From Octopus vulgaris (lineage: Eukaryota), in NCBI GenBank assembly GCA_951406725.2, contig OX597815.1, forward strand, positions 172,360,001 to 172,424,000: a stretch of 64,000 bases of DNA. The letters are read 5' to 3'. Both the position numbers and the translations under genes were made by a program. The notes beneath the pieces were generated by a model. The model ran no database searches. It was not told the DNA's origin and saw only the letters and a program-made list of their open reading frames with translations. Position 1 is the stretch's first letter. The number at the start of each line of letters is the position of its first letter. Shown piece after piece: positions 1,224 to 42,108 of the stretch.

Positions 1224-2354
1224 CTAGCAAATCTACCCATCCACGATGGAGGCATAAAATGAGGGAGGGAAGTCATAACAGCAGTATTATTGAGAAATGT
1301 GTAAATGGACTTGATAGATTACTAGGTAGGGGTCTTAAAGAAATCACATTATTGTTGGTGTTACAGCATTCTATTGCAGCTATATGACATGTGTTTGCGA
1401 CTACTTGACATGTAATGATTATTTGCTCCTGAACTGAAATAGGCTCCAAGCCTCTGTATCATGAATGTGGACCACTCCTAACAAAAGCCAGAGCTTCCTT
1501 CAACCACTAGATAAAAAGTATTAAGAAAAAGATGTTATTTAGATATACTTTTATTTTAGTTGTTTACACTATTTTACGCTTGTTTATACTGTTATACATT
1601 CAAAGTTCACAAATTTCCTTATTTAAATTATGAACCATATTCCTTTCGATAATATCAATATGATTACAAAACTTCTTTGTAAATGATATTTTCTGTTTGG
1701 GTGACACTAATTTTCAAATTACTGGAGTCCATTGCTCTACTCATAGCGACATATAACTGGCCATGTGTAAACATCGGAGTGGATACAAATACACCTACAT
1801 AATCTAAAGTTTGGCCTTGTGCCTTGTTTGTTGTGAATGTGCAAGCAGAATCTTTAGGGTTGCAAAAAATCAAACTAAGACTTGCTTCTCACTGTTCTAT
1901 GTGAATAATGTCTGGATGTTCTTGTACCATGGGTTATTTTGATTAACAAAACTGAGATATAAACAACAGCTGCTTCAATTAGCTGTTTCGAATCCTGCTT
2001 GAGACTGACACATTTCAATAACCACTAAATAATCACACACACTATATACTTTTTCCATTTTATTTTTGCTATTAATTGTCCTTGTGACCCCCTTTATATC
2101 TGCGATGGGGCCACAAACTCTATGATGAAAATCTGGTGAATTTTTTATAAAAATGTGAAGGTAGTTTATCAATTAAAAAATTAATATCCACCAAATAATC
2201 ATACTTTCTGATTTTTTAATGCTAAAAACTTTCTTGATGACCGTCTTTGTAATCCCGAAAAATATTCTAGCCATTGGTCCAACCGTCTGGCCATGAAGAG
2301 GGAACAGACAAAGAGACGGACTGCCAGATAGACATAATGCCCATTATAGTAAGA
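1224..2354 (-). mobile_element. Helitron, internally deleted, carrying a Rep/Hel helicase C-terminal remnant
   Basis: On - strand starts TC (2354) and ends CCATC-gtg-GATGG hairpin (1237-1249) + gtagatttgCTAG (1224) followed by T. Contains the PIF1-like helicase motif. Confidence 0.75.
1664..1845 (-). pseudogene. PIF1-family (Helitron) helicase C-terminal fragment
   Basis: TNKAQGQTLDYVGV..PMFTHGQLYVAMSR ... TENIIYKEVL matches helicase motifs V/VI and the typical Helitron C-terminus; no upstream domains. Confidence 0.85.
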
Positions 2355-2682
2355 TAGCAAATCTGCCCGTCTATGATGGGAAATAAAGGGATAGTATCAC
2401 AAATCTAAACCCTCTAAATTCATAAACTATACAGGGACGGAGTTAATCTTTGTCACCGGAATTTTAGCAAAAAAGAAATCAAAGATGATTTATGAATACA
2501 AAACTCAATATCCACTAAATAATCATACTTTTTCACATTTTTTTTGCACTATAAACCTTCCTGATTACCACCTTTGTAATCCAGAAAAACATCATGACCA
2601 TTGGTCCAGCCATTTGACCATAAAGTGGGGAAAAGATAGACAGACATACATACAGACGGACATAACACCCATTATAGTTAGA
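2355..2682 (-). mobile_element. Short non-autonomous Helitron, head-to-tail with the previous copy
   Basis: Same termini as 1224-2354 (tagcaaatctgcccgtctatgatggg; cccattatagttaga); subterminal 2500-2680 resembles 2180-2354. Confidence 0.7.
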
Positions 2683-3342
2683 TGATATGGCAGTCATTTC
2701 TTATTTTATGAATTCTTAAAAAGGTCTTTCTCCTTATTTAGGTAGTGAGTTACTTTTGAAATAAAATGAAACAAATGAAATAAGTGAGGTTTTTCATACA
2801 GAAAATAAATTGCATACTGGAATACAGAAAGATAATGATAGCTTATGGACCTTGTTGGAATTATAAGGTTGCAGATGCATAATATATTCTCTAATTCACT
2901 GTTAATATATGCTAAAATTTGATGCTACACTTACTAAGTATAATGACAAGTGGTATTTTGCCTTGAATCGTGTGTAAAGGTTGGATGATCACAACTTGAC
3001 TGGATATAAAATAATTAGATTTTAGTTTCACACCCAATAATTTTGTAATGTACTAGAACAGTCACAGAGCCTCAAGGGAGTTATATTTTTAAGTAGTGCA
3101 TTAAATATCAACTACTGAGTGAAATTTAGAACCTTATCCTTCTCTCGTACAACACTATCAACTTCCCATTGTCCACAAAGAGAAATTCTAGATGATGAAG
3201 AAGAACCAAAACATAAAGCCAAATATGAATATCTATATATTTTTTGTACAAAACTACCTATACATATATATTTCTATATCTTACATTTCTAAAGAAAACT
3301 GGGTTAATTTAGAATATTGTGTCTGCAAACTATATGGAAGAT

Positions 3343-3745
3343 GAGTGGCTGTGTGGTAAGTAGCTTGCTTACCAACCACATGGTTCCTGGTTCAGTCCCA
3401 CTGTGTAGCACCTTGGGCAAGTGTCTTCTACTATAGCCTCAGGCCGACCAAAGCCTTGTGAGTGGATTTGGTAGACGGAAACTGAAAGAAGCCCATCGTA
3501 TATATGTATATATATATATATATATGTAAATATGTGTATATATGTTTGTGTGTCTGTGTTTGTCCCCCCAACATCACTTGACAACTGATGCTGGTGTGTT
3601 TACGTCCCTGTAACTTAGCGGTTCGGCAAAGAGACCGATAGAATAAGTACTAGTCTTACAAAGAATAAGTCCTGGGGTCGATTTGTTCGACTAAATGCAG
3701 TGCTCCAGCATGGCCACAGTCAAATGACTGAAACAAGTAAAAGTG
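3343..3745 (+). mobile_element. tRNA-derived CORE-type SINE (octopus OR/OK-like)
   Basis: tRNA-like head with A/B boxes (tggctgtgtggtaag; ggttcagtccc), ccttgggcaagtg core, internal (TA)n, 3' tail cagcatggccacagtcaaatgactgaaac. Many copies in the window. Confidence 0.85.
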
Positions 3746-3961
3746 TAAGTTAATATCAATCCTCTCATTCCTTTATTATAAACTTGAAACTTAAATTCTT
3801 AGCATTCTCTATTGCTTATCTGAGATGGTGAAGTAGATTTTGATTGAATTTTACATACACAAGTGGAACACATAACCATAACCTACCTTTTCCTTTTGTT
3901 GGCTCTCCTCTCACTTTGCTTATCTTCTTTCCTCTCTTCTTTGTCTCCCCCAAACTATCAT

Positions 3962-4000
3962 CTTGTATCTGATGAAGGGCTATGTCTGAAACATGATACA
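3962..4000 (+). ncRNA. Minimal hammerhead-like motif in a PLE terminal-repeat remnant
   Basis: CTGATGA-A-GGGC-TAT-GTCT-GAAAC-ATGA in pyrimidine-rich flanks; cleavage triplet and stem III degenerate. Confidence 0.55.
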
Positions 4001-4129
4001 TTTTTCCTTCTCTCAATATCAACCTAACAATATTAATTGCCTGGGACTTTTATCATGTTTTTTTCATTTTTTGTACTTGATTTGCTTAACGTAGTATACA
4101 CATACACACACACTCACTCACACATACAC

Positions 4130-4163
<34 letters not shown>

Positions 4164-4899
4164 ACATACATACACACACACACACACACACACTCACACA
4201 CACAACACACATACATACACACACACACACATATACATCATTAAAATGTTGTAAGAAATTTGTACACCTGCAAAATTATCCAAACATGCAAGTGATACAA
4301 AGCAAAAGTTTAAGACTCCACAAAGTCAGTTTCAGTTCGCACTTTATTATAGTATATGTGCATGAGAAAGCTAATATTCTATGTACTAAGAAAGAAATAT
4401 ATAGCTTTTGCTAATAAGAATGACATGGTCTTGTACTGAGCAATATATCAATGTTAAGAAGTAGAATGATTTATACATTGAGTTCTGTGTTATGGTGGCT
4501 CTCTACAGCTAGAGCAGATGCTGCACCACCATCAGCAGCTGACACAGTTTCTTCAGGTGCAGATCCATGGTCTCTCTCAAGACCAACAGATGTCTATAAG
4601 TATGTATTATGGTGCCCCGTGCACATTCGCTTATTGATATTTTTTTTACTGGTTTCCACCACTGATCTGTTGTCATGGTAGGCACTGCTTTTAAGAGTTT
4701 TTTAAGTCTCAATACTTATTTCAGGCTAGTACACATTTCATCAATCTTTATTTGATGAATTGCTACAGTTACATGACAAGAAGGAATATGACATAAATAA
4801 CAACACTAGTTTCGTTTTTTTTCTTTTTTGATCAACATAAACAATAAATATAGAAACAGTCACACACACTTTTGTGTGTGTGTGTGTGTGTATACATAC

Positions 4900-4953
<54 letters not shown>

Positions 4954-4992
4954 ATAATATCCATGCCTGTATATCTATAGATATGTGAATAT

Positions 4993-5026
<34 letters not shown>

Positions 5027-5129
5027 GTGTTCGACGTCCTTTTGGTGTCCTGTACACATATATGCGTGTATATGTACATGTAGAGGTAGGTACGTACATA
5101 TATGTTTATATATATGCATATATTTTATT

Positions 5130-5167
<38 letters not shown>

Positions 5168-5282
5168 CATATATATATATATATATAATTTTAATCCAAA
5201 CGGGAAACAAAAAAACAACAACAATGGAACAATTACAGTATTATTATTAATAGGCGCTCAGGAAATGGAAGCAGGGAGGTAT

Positions 5283-5309
5283 GACGTTTCGAGCGGAGCT
5301 CTTCGTCGG
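5283..5309 (-). ncRNA. Minimal (dimeric-type) hammerhead-like motif, U4C variant
   Basis: - strand CCGACGA-A-GAGC-TCC-GCTC-GAAAC-GTC; palindromic ACGT stem III; ~100 nt from the PLE 3' end. Confidence 0.65.
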
Positions 5310-8134
5310 AAACATAAAGAAGGAAGAGAGAGGAAAGAAAGATCCCGGAGCGGGCAACGGAGATAGAGAAAAAAACGACTGGTGTTAGGAGTAGCACATG
5401 GTGAAAGGCGGATGTTTACGATAACAAGAGCAAAGTGGGTTTTTAAAGGCAAAAGAGTGGAGACAAGGTTGGTAACGCAACAGATGTGTGTGTATGTGTG
5501 AGTGTGTGCGTGTGCGTGTGTGTATGTGTGTGTGTGAGGCGAGGTAAAAAAACAAAAAATATATGTATGTGTTAGTGTGTGCGTCTGTGTGTAGGCGTGT
5601 GAGGTAGGGCGAGACGGTGGTCAGCATAGCAGCAGCATAGCAGACAAAGGTCAGTAGTGAGAAAAGGGAGGAAGGGAGGGAGGGGAAGGGGTGGGGGCGT
5701 ATGTAGCGTGCCAGCGTGTGTTGAGTAGTAGTGTGTGTGTGTGTCCAGTGTCGTGGTAGTATTAGTGGCGAGTAGATTGAATGTGTGTAAGAGTAATGTA
5801 TATGTTTAAGCAATGTGTGTATATGTGTGCGCGTGTGTGTAACGAAAAAAAAAAAAAAAAAAGGGGGGGGTAGGAAAAAGACTCCAGCGGAGGGGAAGAT
5901 GGAAGAGTGGTCCCGCGGAGACGGGCGTGGGAAAACCCAACGACAAGCGACATCCCAGGAACGGGCGGGAGGTCTCGTCGGGTCCAAGGGCGAGGTGCAT
6001 GCGGCGCGCATGCGTGCGCGAACCGGCGCAAGTGCGTGTGTGCGCGCGCCTGCGAGTGTGCGCGTACGTATGTGTGTGTGTGGATGTGTGAGTGTGTCTG
6101 TGTGTATGTCTGGGTGGCAGTGTGTCCGATGAATGTATGTGAGTATGTGTGTATATATGTGTGTGCATAGATGTGTGTGTGTGTGTGTGTGTGTGTGTAT
6201 GAGTGTGTATGTATGTACGTGTGGGTGTGGGGAAGTGTGTGTATGTGCATGTGTGTGCGCGAACATACAGGTGTGTGAGTGAGTGCGTGTGTGTGTATGT
6301 ATGTGTGAGTGTGTATGTATGTGTGTGTAGGATGCATGTATGTGTATGGGTGTATGTATGCGTGTGTGTATGTATGTATGTGTACGTGCGTGTGTGTGTG
6401 TGTATGCGTGTAGGTGTGCGCGTGTGCATGCGTGCATGTATGTGCGTATGTGTGTGTGTGCATGTGTGTGGGTATATATGTGTGTGCGTATATGTGTGTG
6501 TATGTGCGTACATGTGTGTGTGTAGGTGTGTAGGCGTGTGTGTATAGGTGTATGTATGTAAGTGTGTATGGGTGTGTCCGTGTATGTGTGTATGTATGTG
6601 TGTGTATGTAGCTGTGTGGGCGTGTGTATATGTGTGTGTATGTAGGTGTGTGGGCGTGTGTATATAGGTGTATGTATGTATGTCTGGGTGTGTCCGTGCA
6701 TGTTTGTGTGTGTGTGTGTATGCATGTGTATGTAGGTGTGTGTGTACGTGTGTAATGTATGTGTGTATGCGTGCGTGTGTGTATGTAGGTGCGTGTGTAT
6801 GTGTGTGGGAGTGTAGGTGTGTGTGTGCGTGTGCGTGTTTATGTTGGTGTGTGCGTATGTGAGTGTGAGTGTATGGGTGTTTGTCATGCATGTGTGTGCG
6901 CGTGCAGGTGAGTGTGTGTGTAAGTATGTGTGTGTGTATGTTTGTGTGAGTGTGTATGTGTGTATGTCTGTGTGTATGTATGTGCGTATAGGAGTATGTA
7001 GGTATGTGTGTGTGTATGTATATGGGTGTATGTATATATGTGTGTGTGTGTGCATGTGTATAAGTATATGCGTGTGTGCGTATGTGTGTGTATGTGTATG
7101 TGTGTGTGTTTTTGTATGTGTGTATGTATGTGTGTAGGCGTGAGTGTGTAGATGTATGTATGTATGGGTGTGTGTCAGTGTGTGTGTGTGTGTGTGTGTG
7201 TAGGTAGATGTGTGTGTCTGAGTGAGGGTATCGCTGTGTAGGTGTGTGTGTGTATGAATGTAAGTGTGTGTGTATACAAGTGTAATGTATGTATGTAGGT
7301 GTGTGTGTGTGTGTATGTGTACGTGTGCGTGTGTATGTGTGTGTGTGTATGCGTGTGAGTGTGGGTGTATGGGTGTATGTCTGTGTGTGTGTATGTCTGA
7401 AGTGGGTATGTGTGTGTATGTATGTATGTGTGTGCGGGTATGTGTGTGTGTGTATGTGTGTGTGTGAGTAGGTGTGCGTGTATGTATGTGGGTAGGGATG
7501 CATGCGAGTGTGTGGGTATGTATGCAACCATACGCATGCGCACATCCGAAGCAAGCCCACACACACGAAGCGCGCTCACGCACACAGCGCACAAGCAGTG
7601 CAACGCAAGCCCAAAGGGGCCGACCGAGCCCCCAGCGCGCGCCAAGGCGCGCGAGCGCAAAGGCCCTCGAACGCCCGCTACGCGGGAACCGAGGATCCAT
7701 CAGCCAAAACCGGAAAGCAGAAAAGAGGGGGGGCTGCCTGGATGCAAAAAGGTGTATGTGTGTGTGCATTCAGTGTACGGGTGTGCATGTGTGGGTATGT
7801 ATGTATGTATGTGCCTACATGTATGTGTGCATGTGTGTGTGTGTGAAGTATGTACGTGCGGTGTGTGTGTGTGAGTGTGTGTGTATGTATGTGCGTATGT
7901 ATGTGTGTGTGTATGTGTGTATGTATGTATGTCTGTGTGTGTGTGTGTGTGTAAGTATGTATGCGTGTGTGTATGTATGTATGTGTGTGTGTAAGTGTGT
8001 GTGATTAAATGTGTGAATGTATGTACGCAGATGGGTCTACGTATGTGTGTGTGTGAACAGGCGTGTGGGAGGTAGGTGGGTGTGTGTGTGTGGGTGGTGT
8101 GTCCGGAAAAAAAAAAAAAAAAAAAAAAACGGTC

Positions 8135-9588
8135 TCAAGAGGAGGGGGCTGTGTTAAGTCCGTGTGGGGTGGTAGTTTGTAGGGTGAAGATGTAGCGTTG
8201 CTCCAAGTGGAGCCTGGAAAGTGGGCGACCATTGTGGGGGGCGAGACCAAACACTGAGATGTCATCTCGGGAATGGCCGGCCGAGCGGAAGTGGCGTGCG
8301 ACGGGAGAAAAAGAGTGTAGGCGAACGTCCCTCAAGTGTTCAGTGAAACGGTCGGACAACCGGCGTCCCGTCTGACCTACATACAGCATCCCGCATAGGT
8401 TGCATTTAATGCAGTAAATAAGGCCAGACGAGGTGCACGTAAAAGAGTGCCTAATGCGTACAGTATGCAGGTTGGAGCCGGTGACAGCGGTGGTGTTGGT
8501 GATGAAGGGGCAAGTGTTGCAGCGGGATCTAGAGCAAGGGAATGATCCGTGTGGGGCTGAGGGGGAAGGAGAGAGGGTGCTGTGGACCAGGAGGTCACGC
8601 AGATTGCGGGCTCGTTTGAAAGAGGACAGGGGTGGGTTAGGGAAAATGGGGCGGGTGGTGGGATCAAGCTGGAGGCGACGGAAGGCACGTAGTATCTTGC
8701 GACGAAGGGGTAGGGTAGAGGGGGGGAAAAGGAGGGGGAAGGGGGTGCGGTTGGGGGGTGGGCGGGGGGAAGGAGACAAGGCGGTAGTGCGGTCGATGCG
8801 ACGGGCGCGGGTGAGGGCATCAGAGAGGAGTGTGGGTGGGTACCCTCGGAGTCTGAACATGCGGGCCAGGTATTGAGATTGGGTCTCGAAATCCTGGTCG
8901 CGGCTGCACAAACGTCGGAGGCGGAGGAACTGGGAGTAGGGGATGGCTCGTTTGGTGTGGAAGGGGTGGGAGGAAGAGAAGTTGAGATAGAGGTGGGAAT
9001 CCGTAGGTTTAAAGAAGGCGGTGGTGGTGAGAGAGCTGGAGGGGTGATCGATGCGGAGAGAGATGTCAAGGAAGTTGACAGAGGTGTTGGAGATGGTGGA
9101 GGTGAATTGAAGAGAGGGGTGAAAGTTGGAAAGGAAAGAGATGAATTGGCCGAGAAGTTCACGGGAAAGGAGGTGGCACCTACGCAGTCGTCGATATAGC
9201 GACCGTATAGTTCGGGGGTCGGCCCAGAGAACTGGGAGAACACTTGGGCCTCAATGTAGCCAAGAAAGAGATTGGCGAAATTGGGGCCCATCCTAGTTCC
9301 CATCGCGACCCCGGACACCTGTTGGTATGTTTCCCCGGCGAACGTGAAGCAATTGAGGGTGAGGACGAGCTCAGCCAAACGGAGAAGGGTGGGGGTGCTG
9401 GGGGTGGGGTCGGGACGACGGTCGAGGAAGTGTTGGAGGGCTAGGAGGCCGTCATTGTGGGGAATCACTGTGTACAGGGATTTTACATCTAAGGTGAAGA
9501 GGAGGTGTGAGGGGCTGGAAGGGAAGGAAAAGGAATTGAAGAGACGGAGGGCGTGGTTGGTGTCGTGTATGTGGGATGGGAGGGCTGC

Positions 9589-9591
<3 letters not shown>
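8135..9591 (-). pseudogene. PLE reverse transcriptase + GIY-YIG endonuclease (5'-truncated, one frameshift near 9165)
   Basis: LDVKSLYTVIP, YQQVSGVAMGTRMGPNFANLF and RYIDD RT motifs; CSRSRCNTC Zn-finger linker; GLIYCIKC..CGMLYVGQTGRRLSDRFTEH..EQRYIFTLQT.PHGLN endonuclease. Confidence 0.92.
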
Positions 9592-9632
<41 letters not shown>

Positions 9633-9690
9633 CATTTCCTACAATAACTGGAAGCTGGTCAGGGGAAATTTGTAATGAACACCCCTTTGT

Positions 9691-9756
9691 ATAGAGTCTG
9701 ATGAGCTGTCCACAATACTGCAGCTTTCATGGATGTCAAACCTTTGGTCACTCTAT
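9691..9756 (+). ncRNA. Degenerate type I hammerhead fold
   Basis: Perfect 7-bp stem I ATAGAGT/ACTCTAT, CTGATGA, stem II TGTCCA/TGGATG, C-AAAC (G12 missing), stem III ACC-TTT-GGT, GTC triplet. Confidence 0.55.
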
Positions 9757-10027
9757 GACCAGACTTTAACTTTAGTGATTTAATGTATATATATATGTGT
9801 TAACATCGAAGTTGAAGGTTTTGTAACTAGCTGGGGCAGCAATTGAATATAACCTGAAGAAATACAACTCGATCCCATTATACAGGTAAACTGTTGCATA
9901 ATCAAATTCCTGTATATATGAAGAACTATGTTGTATGCAAACATGTAATGATTAAAAAATAACTGTCCAACCGTACTCCGTACTCCTTCTCATTGACTCT
10001 ATCTTATTCAATTATATATATATATAT

Positions 10028-35609: not shown

Positions 35610-38121
35610 TTGATTTTGATTTTGATTTTTCCAGTTTCAGCTCATGAGCTGTGGCCATGCTGGGGCACTGCCATTTGGTTTGCTACATGATTTTACCTCA
35701 CGAATGCTTTTTAGCAACTGCCATTTGGTGCATGAGAGAGTTCGATGCAGCTGCCCTCATCTGCACCTCCTGCCGTGAAGTTGGTTCATCCGGGACACCT
35801 GACAGGAAGATCCAGTCTTACTTTAAAGACATCCGCATCTACACCATGCAGGTCCCTCAGGTTCTTCGGGAGGATATTGAAGAGCTGTGGGCCTCTGAAG
35901 CCCAGGCTATCACAGTATCTTGTCCTACATCTTGATGGCAAATTTGGAGTCCTTGGTACCACGCAGTGGCGCCCGGTTCTGGCATTTGTGTGACTCTCGA
36001 TGCCAAAGTTTGGGACAAGTCCTTCCATGATCTTCCAGATATATATTATGGCATATCTTTCTCGCCTACGCTCCAAGGAATAGAGTTTTAATCTCTTGAG
36101 TCTTTCCCAGTAGCTTGCTTATATGCTGCACAGAGGCCATCTTCTTCGTGTAGCTTCATTGGATCGCCTCAAGTTCTGTGATCAACTTGACACTGGATGG
36201 TGACCATAGCTGAGAGCAGTAGTCAAAGTGGCTTAGGACAAGTGTCTTCCAGAGGACCATCATGGTTTCTTGTTCTCTTGTTCTAAAGGTTCTAAGAATC
36301 CATCCGGCCAGCCGTCTACATTTCATTGCCAGTTTAGCAACATGTACATGAAAGGTTGCGTCATCACTCATGTGAATACCCAGGTCACGCACTGATTGTG
36401 TCTCTGGGATTGCAATCCCTCCGGGTCCAGTGTATTCATTGGGTATTGCATTCAGTTTTGCATGCTGATAGCATAAAGCTTGAAACTTTTCAGCATTGAA
36501 CTGCATGCTATTCTTTTCAGCCCACTTGTATATTTTGTCCAGCTCACATTGCAGGTGCTTAGTGTCTTCAGGGTTCTGTATTGCCTGTGAAACTTTTGTA
36601 TCATCTGCATAACTTGTGATCGTGGCTCTCTGCATGGCTGAGGGCATGTCTGAGAGGGCCATTATGAACAGTAGTGGTCCCAAAACAGTGCCCTGCGGAA
36701 CACCGCTCACTATTTGCGTGTTAATGGCTACTACCACCTGACTTCTATCTTTCAGAAAGTCATGAAGCCATTCTCCCAGTTTTCCAACTATGCTAAGATC
36801 ACGCAGTTTGTGACATATCATTCCATGATCAACTTTATCAAAGGCCTTTGCAAAGTCGAGATATATCACTTCCACATTTGAGTGGTTGAGCAGTCGTTTC
36901 AGTACCCAGTCATAGGAGTAGGAGCTGAGTTAAGCAGCTTCTTCCTGGTCGGAAACCATGTTGGGTGTCAGGCAGCAAGTCATTTTCTTCAAGGAAGGTG
37001 ATTAGTTTCCTTCTGACTATTCGTTCCATGACCTTGCTGATGTGTGAGGTCAGAGAGATAGGTCTGTAGTTCTTGGCCTCCGCTCTGCTACCTCCTTTAT
37101 GAATAGGGCTCAGTTTTCTTGGAAGTTTGCCAGCTGCAAGGAAGCTCTGAAAGAGGAACTGCAGTGGTCTTGCTAGGACTCTCTTACATACTTTTAGGAG
37201 AATTGCCGGGAATCCATCGGGGCCAGTAGCTGAGTCTGTTTGCATTTCATCTATAGCCTTTATTACATCGTCTTCCTTTATATCGATGTAATCTATCGTC
37301 GCTGCCTCTGATTTTATATCTGCAGTGGTAAAGAAGTCAGTTGGATTGGTGATTTGGAAATGCCCAAGAGGTGGAGTGAAAACACTCTTGAATTGCTCAT
37401 TCAGTATTTCACTTACCCTCATTGGTTTTCCTGTGAGTGTGCCATCCTTTTCAAGGAGTGGCCCTATCCTACAGTGCACCGTAGCTGTTTCTTTGGCATA
37501 CCTGTAGAAAGCTCTGGGGTTAGATTTTATGTTGTTTATAGCCCAGGCTTCTTTGTCTGCTCTTTCCTTTTCATGGGAGAATTGCAGACATTTTTCAATT
37601 TCCAACAGTTTTATTTTCAGGCGGGACTTTTCAATGCTTTCAATTTGTTTGTTTAGGCGATTTGAAATTTTTGTACACCGTCTCATTAAAATTTTCCTCT
37701 CTCTTGGGATTTTGTTCTTGTGTACAGTGGCCTTTCTCTCTGGGACACATTTGTAGCATATGGCTTGCATTACAGACATGAATTGTTGAAGTTTCACGTC
37801 GATGTCTGGAGAGGAGAGACATTCAGGCCAGTTTTGTTTGAGGATCTCTTTCTCAATTTGTTTCCAGTTTGCCTTATGGAAGTTCAAGCTGGAAAGATTC
37901 TGAGGGTTTCTTGTAGGCTGCATGTCCATGCTTTCCTTTGGCCCGTACATGGTCAGCTCTACCATGTTGTGATCCGAGAGTAGTGTCGGTGTCACTTTCA
38001 CATTATGGATGAGATCCATATTATTTGTGAAGCAGAGATCCAGTGTGTTACCTGCCCTGGTTGGTTGGAGTATTACTTGCTCCATGTACAGGGTGTTGAT
38101 GAGGTTCAGGAGGGACCTCGC
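35607..38121 (-). mobile_element. CR1/L2-group LINE, 5'-truncated, ORF2 interrupted
   Basis: PTRAGNTLDLCFTN (APE end), NYRPISLTS, QHGFRPGRSC, YLDFAKAFDKVDH, GVPQGTVLGPLLF, YADD; 3' (AAAATC)n tail; (TA)n flanks. Confidence 0.92.
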
Positions 38122-38149
38122 ATATATATATATATATATATACATACAT

Positions 38150-38181
<32 letters not shown>

Positions 38182-38385
38182 GCATACCTACATATATATA
38201 CATACATATGTATATATATGTGTGATGGGCTTCTTTCAGCTTCTGTCTACCAAATCTACTCAAAATGGTTTGGTTGGCCCAAGGTTATAGTAGAAAACAC
38301 TTGCCCAAGGTGCCATGCAGTGAGACTGAACCCAGAACCATGTGGTTGGTAAGCAAGCTACTTACCATATAGCCACTCCTGTGCC

Positions 38386-38434
<49 letters not shown>

Positions 38435-38437
38435 TTG

Positions 38438-38522
<85 letters not shown>

Positions 38523-38524
38523 GG

Positions 38525-38575
38525 AGCTTCTACAGGACTAGTACTGTTTCATTCAAGAGAAATCTTCAGGAAGCT
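38525..38575 (-). ncRNA. Type I hammerhead ribozyme fold (left arm)
   Basis: Exact reverse complement of 41929-41979. Confidence 0.8.
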
Positions 38576-38893
38576 ATTTAACAAGAATTGTATTAGCATT
38601 TATACATTTAGGCAGGTTTAAAGGAGTGGTGGTGGGGGACTTTTTGGGGGTAGGCATAGCGCAAAATATCATACTTGGGGGAGTGGTCAAGGAGTCAGTG
38701 GTAAGTTAGATGAAAGAATAGATAAATAAAAAAATAAAAAAATAAAAAATATATATAAAAAATATATATATAAAAAAATATATATATAAAAAAAAGGGGG
38801 GATAGAGTTATAGGTAAATAAGGAGATTCTCACTTATACCTATACACACATGTATACGTATCTACACACACATATATATACACATATATATAT

Positions 38894-38930
<37 letters not shown>

Positions 38931-39240
38931 CATATATACACACATACATACATATCTACATACACACATACATACACCCGCCCACATATACAAATTTATA
39001 CACATGCACATGCCTATACCTGTCTACACATACACACACGTATATATGCATACACTCACTCCCATGCATGCACGCATACACACATGTATATATATATATA
39101 TACCCGCGACCACACATACATATATACACAGAAAAATATATATTCATACGCACATACACTCATGCACACACAACACACCTAGTTCCCTATATACACATAT
39201 TTACACCTATATATACATACACCCACATACACCTATGTAC

Positions 39241-39271
<31 letters not shown>

Positions 39272-39810
39272 CACGCATACATATATATACATGTGTGCAC
39301 ATACATACATACACACATATACATACACATACACATACACATGTGTACCTATACATACCTACACATACACACATACATACATACAAATATATATATATAT
39401 ATATATATATACAATCCAATACAGGCCCATTCCCTAATTTTAATTTTATTATCTTCATTTATTACTTTTGTTATCTTTGATCGCTAGAGCTAAGAATCCT
39501 GGCTATGGCTGCATGTCCATTTGTCTGTCTACTAGAAGGCAAGTGCTCATTCCCGCACGCACACTCATTAGCACGTACATTCACCCATTCGTACACTCAT
39601 ACACATACACGTACGCACGCGTTATATTCATACATACAAACATCTACATACGTTCACGTATATACACATACGTACTCGTACCTACAGATTCGTGTCTACA
39701 CTTTAGGAGGCTAGTCTATACATATACACCAATAAATATACATATATATATATATATACACACATATACATACACACACACACATATATACTCCTACATA
39801 CAGATACATA

Positions 39811-39854
<44 letters not shown>

Positions 39855-40026
39855 CATACACATACACACATACATATACACACACATACATACACATATA
39901 TATACATACACAAACATATATACACACATATATATACATACACACATACACACATACGTACGTATACATACATACATACATCCATACATCCATACTTACA
40001 TGCATTTATACGCATACACACACCCA

Positions 40027-40067
<41 letters not shown>

Positions 40068-40433
40068 TCACACATACATATACAAATCTACGCACACGCA
40101 TACATACATACACGCATACACATACACGCACATACACATATACATGCGTACCCATACATGTGCACACACGCACGCGCATCCATATATATACACACACACA
40201 CATATATATACACGTGTGCAAGCATACATACATACTCATACGCGCACACATACTTACATATACATATATGCACACACTTACACACATATGTATATATATG
40301 TGTGTGTGTGTATATATATGGATGCGCGTGCGTGTGTGCACATGTATGGGTACGCATGTATATGTGTATGTGCGTGTATGTGTATGCGTGTATGTATGTA
40401 TGTGTGTGCGTAGATTTGTATATGTATGTGTGA

Positions 40434-40480
<47 letters not shown>

Positions 40481-40654
40481 TGGGTGTGTGTATGCGTATA
40501 AATGCATGTAAGTATGGATGTATGGATGTATGTATGTATGTATACGTACGTATGTGTGTATGTGTGTATGTATATATATATGTGTGTATATATGTTTGTG
40601 TATGTATATATATGTGTATGTATGTGTGTGTATATATATGTGTGTATGTGTATG

Positions 40655-40705
<51 letters not shown>

Positions 40706-41236
40706 CTGTATGTAGGAGTATATATGTGTGTGTGTGTATGTATATGTGTGTATATATATATATATATGTATATTTATTGGTGTATATGTATAGACTAGCC
40801 TCCTAAAGTGTAGACACGAATCTGTAGGTACGAGTACGTATGTGTATATACGTGAACGTATGTAGATGTTTGTATGTATGAATATAACGCGTGCGTATGT
40901 GTATGTGTATGAGTGTACGAATGGGTGAATGTACGTGCTAATGAGTGTGCGTGCGGGAATGAGCACTTGCCTTCTAGTAGACAGACAAATGGACATGCAG
41001 CCATAGCCAGGATTCTTAGCTCTAGCGATCAAAGATAACAAAAGTAATAAATGAAGATAATAAAATTAAAATTAGGAATGGGCCTGTATTGGATTGTATA
41101 TATATATATATATATATATATTTGTATGTATGTATGTGTGTATGTGTAGGTATGTATAGGTACACATGTGTATGTGTATGTGTATGTATATGTGTGTATG
41201 TATGTATGTGCACACATGTATATATATGTATGCGTG

Positions 41237-41267
<31 letters not shown>

Positions 41268-41577
41268 GTACATAGGTGTATGTGGGTGTATGTATATATA
41301 GGTGTAAATATGTGTATATAGGGAACTAGGTGTGTTGTGTGTGCATGAGTGTATGTGCGTATGAATATATATTTTTCTGTGTATATATGTATGTGTGGTC
41401 GCGGGTATATATATATATATACATGTGTGTATGCGTGCATGCATGGGAGTGAGTGTATGCATATATACGTGTGTGTATGTGTAGACAGGTATAGGCATGT
41501 GCATGTGTATAAATTTGTATATGTGGGCGGGTGTATGTATGTGTGTATGTAGATATGTATGTATGTGTGTATATATG

Positions 41578-41608
<31 letters not shown>

Positions 41609-41928
41609 GTGTATATATATATGTGTATATATATGTGTGTGTAGATACGTATACATGTGTGTATAGGTATAAGTGAGAATCTCCTTATTTACCTATAACT
41701 CTATCCCCCCTTTGTTTTATATATATATTTTTTATATATATATTTTTTATATATATTTTTTATTTTTTATTTTTTTATTTATCTATTCTTTCATCTAACT
41801 TACCACTGACTCCTTGACCACTCCCCCAAGTATGATATTTTGCGCTATGCCTACCCCCAAAAAGTCCCCCACCACCACTCCTTTAAACCTGCCTAAATGT
41901 ATAAATGCTAATACAATTCTTGTTAAAT

Positions 41929-41979
41929 AGCTTCCTGAAGATTTCTCTTGAATGAAACAGTACTAGTCCTGTAGAAGCT
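41929..41979 (+). ncRNA. Type I hammerhead ribozyme fold (right arm)
   Basis: AGCTTC-CTGAAGA-T.TTC-TCTT-GAA.T-GAAACAG-TACTAGTC-CTGTA-GAAGCT: 6-bp stem I, intact core, ACAG/CTGT stem III, GUA site (predicted cut after 41973). Confidence 0.8.
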
Positions 41980-42062
41980 CCTTCTATATAATAAATTAAT
42001 TTTACTCTGCTATGTATTGAGTACCTTACTTACTGTGGTTAACCCCGAATCAACCCGGGACC

Positions 42063-42108
<46 letters not shown>

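Follow-up and report, generated by a model that had tools for sequence, protein, structure and literature searches.

The 64-kb stretch of Octopus vulgaris DNA analyzed here (the window) contains a 3.5-kb palindrome flanked by (TA)n microsatellite. Its arms, 38514-40210 and the reverse complement of 40291-41990, are identical at 1,686 aligned positions. They differ by 6 substitutions, one of them at 39611 (G)/40898, and by 6 small indels totaling 13 nt, which all lie within homopolymer or microsatellite runs, for example in the C-run near 39431/41076. The near-identical inverted arms described in the initial annotation are thus borne out by the alignment, including the differing sites that it named. 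The features of the locus, read with reference to the repeat family described below, are as follows.

38438..38519, no strand: left-flank (TA)n target microsatellite, the last bases of which are indistinguishable from the TATATA end of the arm
38514..40298, minus strand: left arm, a 5'-truncated copy of the 3' UTR and pLTR (unit positions ~3601-5118), ending in the short end
38525..38575, minus strand: left hammerhead motif, also of type I, with cleavage predicted after 38531
38597..38604, minus strand: mirror copy of the TATA-box match, from the sequence and the arm alignment
40211..40276, minus strand: family sequence found on the left arm only (the 'spacer' of the initial annotation)
40277..40298, no strand: head-to-head junction, a 22-nt near-palindromic overlap common to both arms
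40277..42065, plus strand: right arm, a 5'-truncated copy (unit positions ~3677-5193), ending in the long end
41900..41907, plus strand: TATA-box consensus match 29 nt upstream of the common arm stop, a putative promoter element
41929..41979, plus strand: type I hammerhead motif following the Hydra pattern, with cleavage predicted after 41973
41990..41996, plus strand: AATAAA and the commonest short end of the family (41996), the putative proximal RT start site
41991..42065, plus strand: tail between the two ends, with 42065 the putative distal RT start site
42066..42096, no strand: right-flank (AT)n target microsatellite

A 76-bp spacer had been described at the center of the palindrome. It is not foreign sequence: the left arm remains family sequence as far as 40298 and the right arm begins at 40277, leaving a junction overlap of 22 nt when read against family copies (six of six copies compared) and 66 nt of family sequence on the left arm that are absent from the right arm. 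The earlier observations of a tail at 41991-42065 on the right arm alone and of (TA)n at both ends of the element (38438-38519 and 42066-42096) agree with our alignments. In full-length copies the tail continues into an ORF, with the ATG 45 nt on. The locus itself has no ORF, as had also been claimed, and the ATG frames of at least 80 aa inside the element are all microsatellite translations in which five residues make up 70-90% of the sequence. Elsewhere in the window, a LINE fragment on the minus strand (36156-38187) comprises endonuclease-end and RT frames and is broken off at a TA tract, and a short repeat at about 38220-38390 resembles an octopus SINE.

We searched the window with a type I hammerhead descriptor and found exactly two motifs, with core C3 at 41935 on the plus strand and at 38569 on the minus strand. 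Under the same descriptor, 100 of 100 composition-matched random windows gave 0 motifs. Both of the folds proposed in the initial annotation are therefore recovered, with predicted cuts after 41973 and 38531. They lie 3.4 kb apart on opposite strands, and both point outward. The motif follows the Hydra pattern tabulated in the supplement of PMC8557442. The minimum-energy fold shows the three stems, with a stability no better than that of shuffled sequences (z -0.17), and Rfam gave no match at the gathering score. No hammerhead family occurs among the 150 of 178 Rfam E-value matches listed; these matches are microsatellite-driven microRNA matches, and we rejected them.

To place the locus in its family, we searched the 2.8-Gb genome (227 contigs) for further copies. 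A query of 276 bases (41790-42065) returned 908 candidates, and 40 of the 40 scored match at 100%. Exact long ends followed by ATATA occur at least 2,417 times in the genome, exact hammerhead cores of this family at least 1,930 times, and one variant of the short end at least 1,331 times, these exact-pattern counts being lower bounds. The full unit, measured between tandem copies in locus L065, is 5,193 bp and consists of a 45-nt leader, the ORF, a 2.87-kb CA/TA-rich 3' UTR, the hammerhead and the tail, in that order. Family sequence extends upstream into the ORF in the 39 copies that were fetched.

Locus L173 carries a natural open ORF of 713 aa. A structure model of its protein has a pLDDT of 89.5, and the top five Foldseek matches to the model are telomerase RTs (E 9e-9 to 4e-8). 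For the RT part of L065, 7,995 candidates were scored, of which 1,440 are relatives at E <= 1e-10, with a best identity of 53%; a cluster look-up of the four closest proteins returned no names. Pfam and PDB sequence searches of the ORF protein gave no RT match. For the endonuclease, VY..YIG, R, E and N of GIY-YIG are conserved between the ORF protein and seven relatives, and Pfam finds GIY-YIG in 2 of the 41 aligned members and not in the ORF protein itself. The family thus displays the traits of EN+ Penelope-like elements (PLEs): a telomerase-like RT in a single ORF, a GIY-YIG domain, pLTRs, tandem and inverted insertions, and a tail. The earlier view of a mobile, PLE-derived sequence is upheld. 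We conclude with great confidence that the locus is one insertion of a young PLE with Hydra-clade motifs, in which two copies of the 3' end stand head to head. The arms are two 5'-truncated copies of the microsatellite-rich 3-kb 3' UTR, inserted in a (TA)n tract.

Other copies have the same kind of target: of 60 long ends, 53 run on into at least 10 nt of AT repeat, in a sample pre-selected for ATATA. At L070 (9355-9542), a mini-palindrome of the family lies inside a TA tract that is itself part of a 3' UTR of this family; such self-targeting may partly account for the length of the 3' UTR.

Judging from its motifs, the family appears to belong to the Hydra clade, which was defined among C-terminal EN+ PLEs by Craig et al. 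2021 (PMC8557442). Like the clade as described there, it has a single ORF of RT and C-terminal GIY-YIG, DKT in place of DKG, the CxCX5C linker and CxxC..E..N..CxH. The CCHH motif is absent, leaving one unconserved C between VY and YIG, and C179/C182, E185, N198 and C207/H209 are invariant in eight of the eight proteins aligned. GxKF/Y is not conserved, the family having GFKS. The canonical Hydra kind of hammerhead ('ctgaagat..tgaa ac'), the (TA)n targets and the inverted 5' partner are shared as well. The family departs from the published description in having RWR instead of RWK (its relatives have RWK or RWR), in its thousands of near-identical ends, and in a unit of 5,193 bp, through the 2.87-kb 3' UTR, where Hydra elements are generally under 3 kb, a size that is typical rather than defining. 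The Naiad clade, with its N-terminal EN and without a canonical hammerhead, does not fit. An octopus Hydra family listed in PMC8557442 is Hydra-1_Obim from Octopus bimaculoides (2,507 bp), and the hammerhead stems and 8-nt loop III of the window family differ from those of Hydra-1_Obim and the others listed. The suggestion of an undescribed family is therefore plausible within a clade that is itself described, and the consensus sequences in the supplement of PMC8557442 might already name it.

The RT and EN regions of the ORF are split in many assembled copies by a C-run that is one base short; this is so in 76 of the first 100 copies listed (167 in all), for example at L065 5670, and in old and young copies alike. 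The contigs of four of four independent sequencing runs carry the extra base, at depths of 144/153, 29/29, 35,558/61,363 and 2,939/3,158. Because of these contigs, and because open copies exist, we attribute the frameshift to a homopolymer error of the assembly and reject a programmed frameshift. Other apparent frameshifts in young repeats of the Octopus vulgaris assembly are also doubtful.

We examined the first 60 of the 2,417 long ends listed for a head-to-head partner within 9.5 kb. The probe found a partner in 43 of 60, from which that of L226 was dropped, since it belongs to a neighboring insertion; three further partners with a small deletion in the probe region were confirmed by alignment. 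In the resulting 45 resolved pairs, a long end is joined to a short end in 45 of 45 cases and to another long end in none; the remaining 15 of 60 long ends have no resolved partner within 9.5 kb. Likewise, when the first 100 short ends listed were read by eye, no two of them faced each other head to head at a distance of up to 12 kb. The inverted partner without the tail, proposed in the initial annotation for this locus, is therefore found both there and across insertions of the family. The long and the short end are spaced 69 nt apart. The longer arm can be either one, as at L252, where an 80-nt long arm faces a 1.9-kb short arm; arm lengths span about 30 nt to more than one unit, and the break points differ at each locus. 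In contigs from the independent runs, both types of end run into (TA)n, and one contig shows the joint of a mini-palindrome.

A second Hydra-type family (loci L273-L322) has open frames of 727 aa with 47% protein identity in the RT, a unit of about 3.36 kb and 3,796 exact hammerhead cores. Its pairs are long plus short in 18 of 18 cases, namely all 10 resolved among 20 ORF loci and all 8 among 30 core loci. Its two ends lie 71 nt apart, and the short ends of both families sit at AATAAA. The tails of the two families can be aligned, AATAAA being followed by a TACTC..GAGTA hairpin, which is a candidate protein-binding element. At L277 and L291, hammerhead motifs of further families lie beside second-family insertions, in opposed pairs.

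Kinship between arms was compared at 25 loci with at least 300 comparable bases, leaving out 9 duplicated, nested or unproven loci. Partner arms differ from one another by 0.17%, against a median of 0.65% from other copies, and a locus's own partner arm is strictly the closest copy in 15 of 25 loci. The arms in the window show 2 differences in 1,051 bases, and the closest other copy differs by 0.67%. Private substitutions number 25 on both arms and 32 on one arm; the latter may be noise, because the assembly has homopolymer errors. The shared private variants are compatible with one RNA molecule, two RNAs from one source locus, DNA-templated copying of one arm from the other, or later gene conversion.

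Of the 60 loci, 37 have a short long-arm. In these, 23 arm ends stop exactly at the first base of hammerhead stem I (41929), and in 21 loci both arms lie within unit positions 5054-5066. Perfect joints at the start of stem I (AGCT) number 304. A match to the TATA consensus starts 29 nt upstream of the start of stem I in 102 of 105 copies, loci common to both of our samples (four) being counted once, and is unique within the last 333 nt of the unit. Since the pile-up of arm stops sits 29 nt behind this TATA box, we infer from these sequence patterns that the 5' end of the mRNA would coincide with 41929. Two observations weigh against this reading: the start of stem I is a 4-nt palindrome that favors joining, one of 17 such palindromes in the region, and a 4-nt palindrome is present at the stop in both families; and arm stops pile up in much the same way in the second family, where no clean TATA box lies at the corresponding distance. 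At L169 (5827-6961), the long arm halts at the start of stem I, resumes at unit position 786 after 3 extra bases, and comes to a second halt at the start of stem I. We also considered that short arms might arise by run-off at the site of hammerhead cleavage and rejected this, given only 9 exact joints with an arm ending at the cut and none (0/37) among the short insertions.

Taken as a whole, the insertions are probably made by a reaction in which both nicked strands of the target prime reverse transcription on RNA from one source copy, at two internal sites about 70 nt apart. The GIY-YIG domain would nick both strands of (TA)n. Synthesis from one 3' end would begin distally, at 42065, and from the other proximally, at about 41990-41996, so that the tail would be found on one arm only. 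Both cDNAs would pass an uncut or re-ligated hammerhead and stop early, in the window after about 1.8 kb, within the 3' UTR, and the 3' ends of the cDNAs would be joined through the 22-nt microhomology. On a template formed by the mRNA's 5' end, the cDNAs would run off after 137 and 68 nt to yield 200-bp mini-palindromes; long or multi-unit arms would require a tandem transcript or a hammerhead-cut, circularized RNA.

There is precedent for such a reaction. In vitro, the PLE Poseidon of Anolis carolinensis (PAc; Frangieh et al. 2024, PMC11167929) nicks both strands of its target and extends them, and two internal start sites bound its tail. No difference in start site was seen between the strands, so that PAc lends no support to an obligate rule of one site per strand. 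PAc resembles the window family in its two start sites downstream of the hammerhead, which bound the tail, and in the use of both target strands; the absence of stops at the cut among the short insertions is in line with the uncut RNA used as substrate in vitro. PAc belongs to another clade, however, and has its sites inside the ORF, whereas both sites of the window family lie upstream of the ATG; and while PAc showed no strand preference in vitro, insertions of the window family pair one site with the other. The head-to-head layout itself is already published (PMC3846280, PMC8557442). Adineta Pen2a has inverted truncated copies, palindromes at the joint and a one-sided tail (PMC3846280; PMC8557442, Fig. 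2 legend), and the Hydra element Penelope-13_HM has a 5'-truncated inverted copy at its 5' end (PMC8557442). Typical EN+ PLE insertions as described there share with ours the head-to-head truncated copy, an overlap or palindrome at the joint, a tail at one end and a TATA-like box in the pLTR. Their tails measure 30-40 nt, compared with 69-75 nt here, and pairing is optional in them, whereas it is a counted rule here (45/45 and 18/18); target duplication is unreadable in (TA)n. Our literature search, a weak one in that most subscription papers and Repbase lay outside it, returned no statement of obligate long-plus-short pairing and none that places a start site at a hammerhead's first base.

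It is conceivable, though we think it unlikely, that one arm is made from RNA and the other by fold-back or self-priming or by copying of the first cDNA, with trimming at the join; fold-back or self-priming, possibly on an antisense template, has been proposed for PLE junction palindromes (PMC3846280). Such copying would account for the private variants common to both arms, and joints do often fall on short palindromes, as with the perfect joints at AGCT and the near-palindromic joint in the window. A fold-back copy cannot outreach its template, however, and simple fold-back is made unlikely by the fact that neither arm contains the other: the arm with the short end is the longer one and yet lacks the tail in the window and at L252, L046, L060, L067 and L240. 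Fold-back also leaves the fixed second end in two families without a reason. The initial annotation had instead seen a dedicated non-autonomous fold-back or retrozyme unit, the 3.5-kb palindrome moving as a whole. The lack of an ORF at the locus, the hammerhead at each end and the existence of retrozyme-like concatemers of this family elsewhere speak for it, but the junction at the center of the window occurs in 0 of 39 close copies, break points vary at every long locus, and the arms are the 3' UTR of an ORF-bearing element. Moreover, because the hammerheads face outward on opposite strands, no single strand carries the tandem pair of a retrozyme monomer, and the ORF-start segment kept in the units of both concatemers is absent from the window. 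We therefore regard this reading as very improbable. That the palindrome is a fold-back read or an assembly artifact we hold to be scarcely credible: near-identical arms, low-complexity DNA, homopolymer errors and a poor stretch behind the center of L167 would favor an artifact, but the flanks differ, the ends are the two family-specific ends, 66 nt occur on one arm alone, 45 of 60 loci are laid out in the same way, and independent contigs show both types of end and a palindromic joint.

Two-site priming on both strands, which we prefer, also bears on two loci that carry short concatemers. At L166 (G000:C2:64626000-64635000), a concatemer of a 277-nt unit occupies both arms (2317-6213), and at L167 (G000:C5:37479500-37489499), a concatemer of a 333-nt unit does so (1922-9764). 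The units consist of the hammerhead, the tail and the first 102 or 109 nt of the 5.19-kb unit. Each locus has the same rare junction on both arms, 6+8 times at L166 and 20+4 times at L167, and each array is bounded by one long and one short end. Around unit positions 70-115 of L065, at the start of the ORF, lie two stretches that resemble the halves of a hammerhead core; both concatemer junctions fall there, possibly by chance. The concatemers suggest a circular template, as proposed earlier in PMC4209133. The short concatemers favor a circle; long arms could also be templated by tandem transcripts of arrays like that at L065.

Tandem same-strand hammerhead units of 150-450 bp, as expected of a retrozyme, are found at L166 and L167 alone and not in the window element, which we do not classify as a retrozyme. 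Like the animal non-LTR retrozymes described in PMC7229834, L166 and L167 have tandem units (277 and 333 nt), each with a type I hammerhead, and an origin in PLE pLTRs; a PLE origin of animal retrozymes has been argued in bioRxiv 10.64898/2026.07.22.740005. In contrast to those retrozymes, each is a single insertion that has both PLE ends and whose second arm is inverted, and the parent to which they trace, at 99-100% identity, has an open ORF. Tentatively, and with rather more doubt than belief, we extend two-site priming to a general scheme in which two-site, two-strand priming on a single RNA is obligate in Hydra-type PLEs, the mRNA starts with the first base of the hammerhead, linear uncut mRNA gives rise to mini-palindromes, cut circular RNA gives rise to long and multi-unit arms, and the concatemers of 277 and 333 nt represent retrozymes at the moment of their birth, rolled out from the two target strands. 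If true, obligate two-site priming would unite the inverted pLTR, the one-sided tail, the tandems and the origin of retrozymes in one mechanism.

For annotation, palindromes of this kind should be masked as PLE ends and not treated as hairpin RNA genes, and the frameshift should not be read as biology. The locus in the window is an ordinary footprint; the value lies in the statistics of the family. It supplies near-identical insertions by the thousand, ends fixed sharply at two positions and an open natural ORF; the rule holds again in a second family, and the concatemers agree with the circular template proposed in PMC4209133. The family is thus a good system in which to study the origin of inverted and tandem PLE ends with a one-sided tail, a question posed in PMC8557442.
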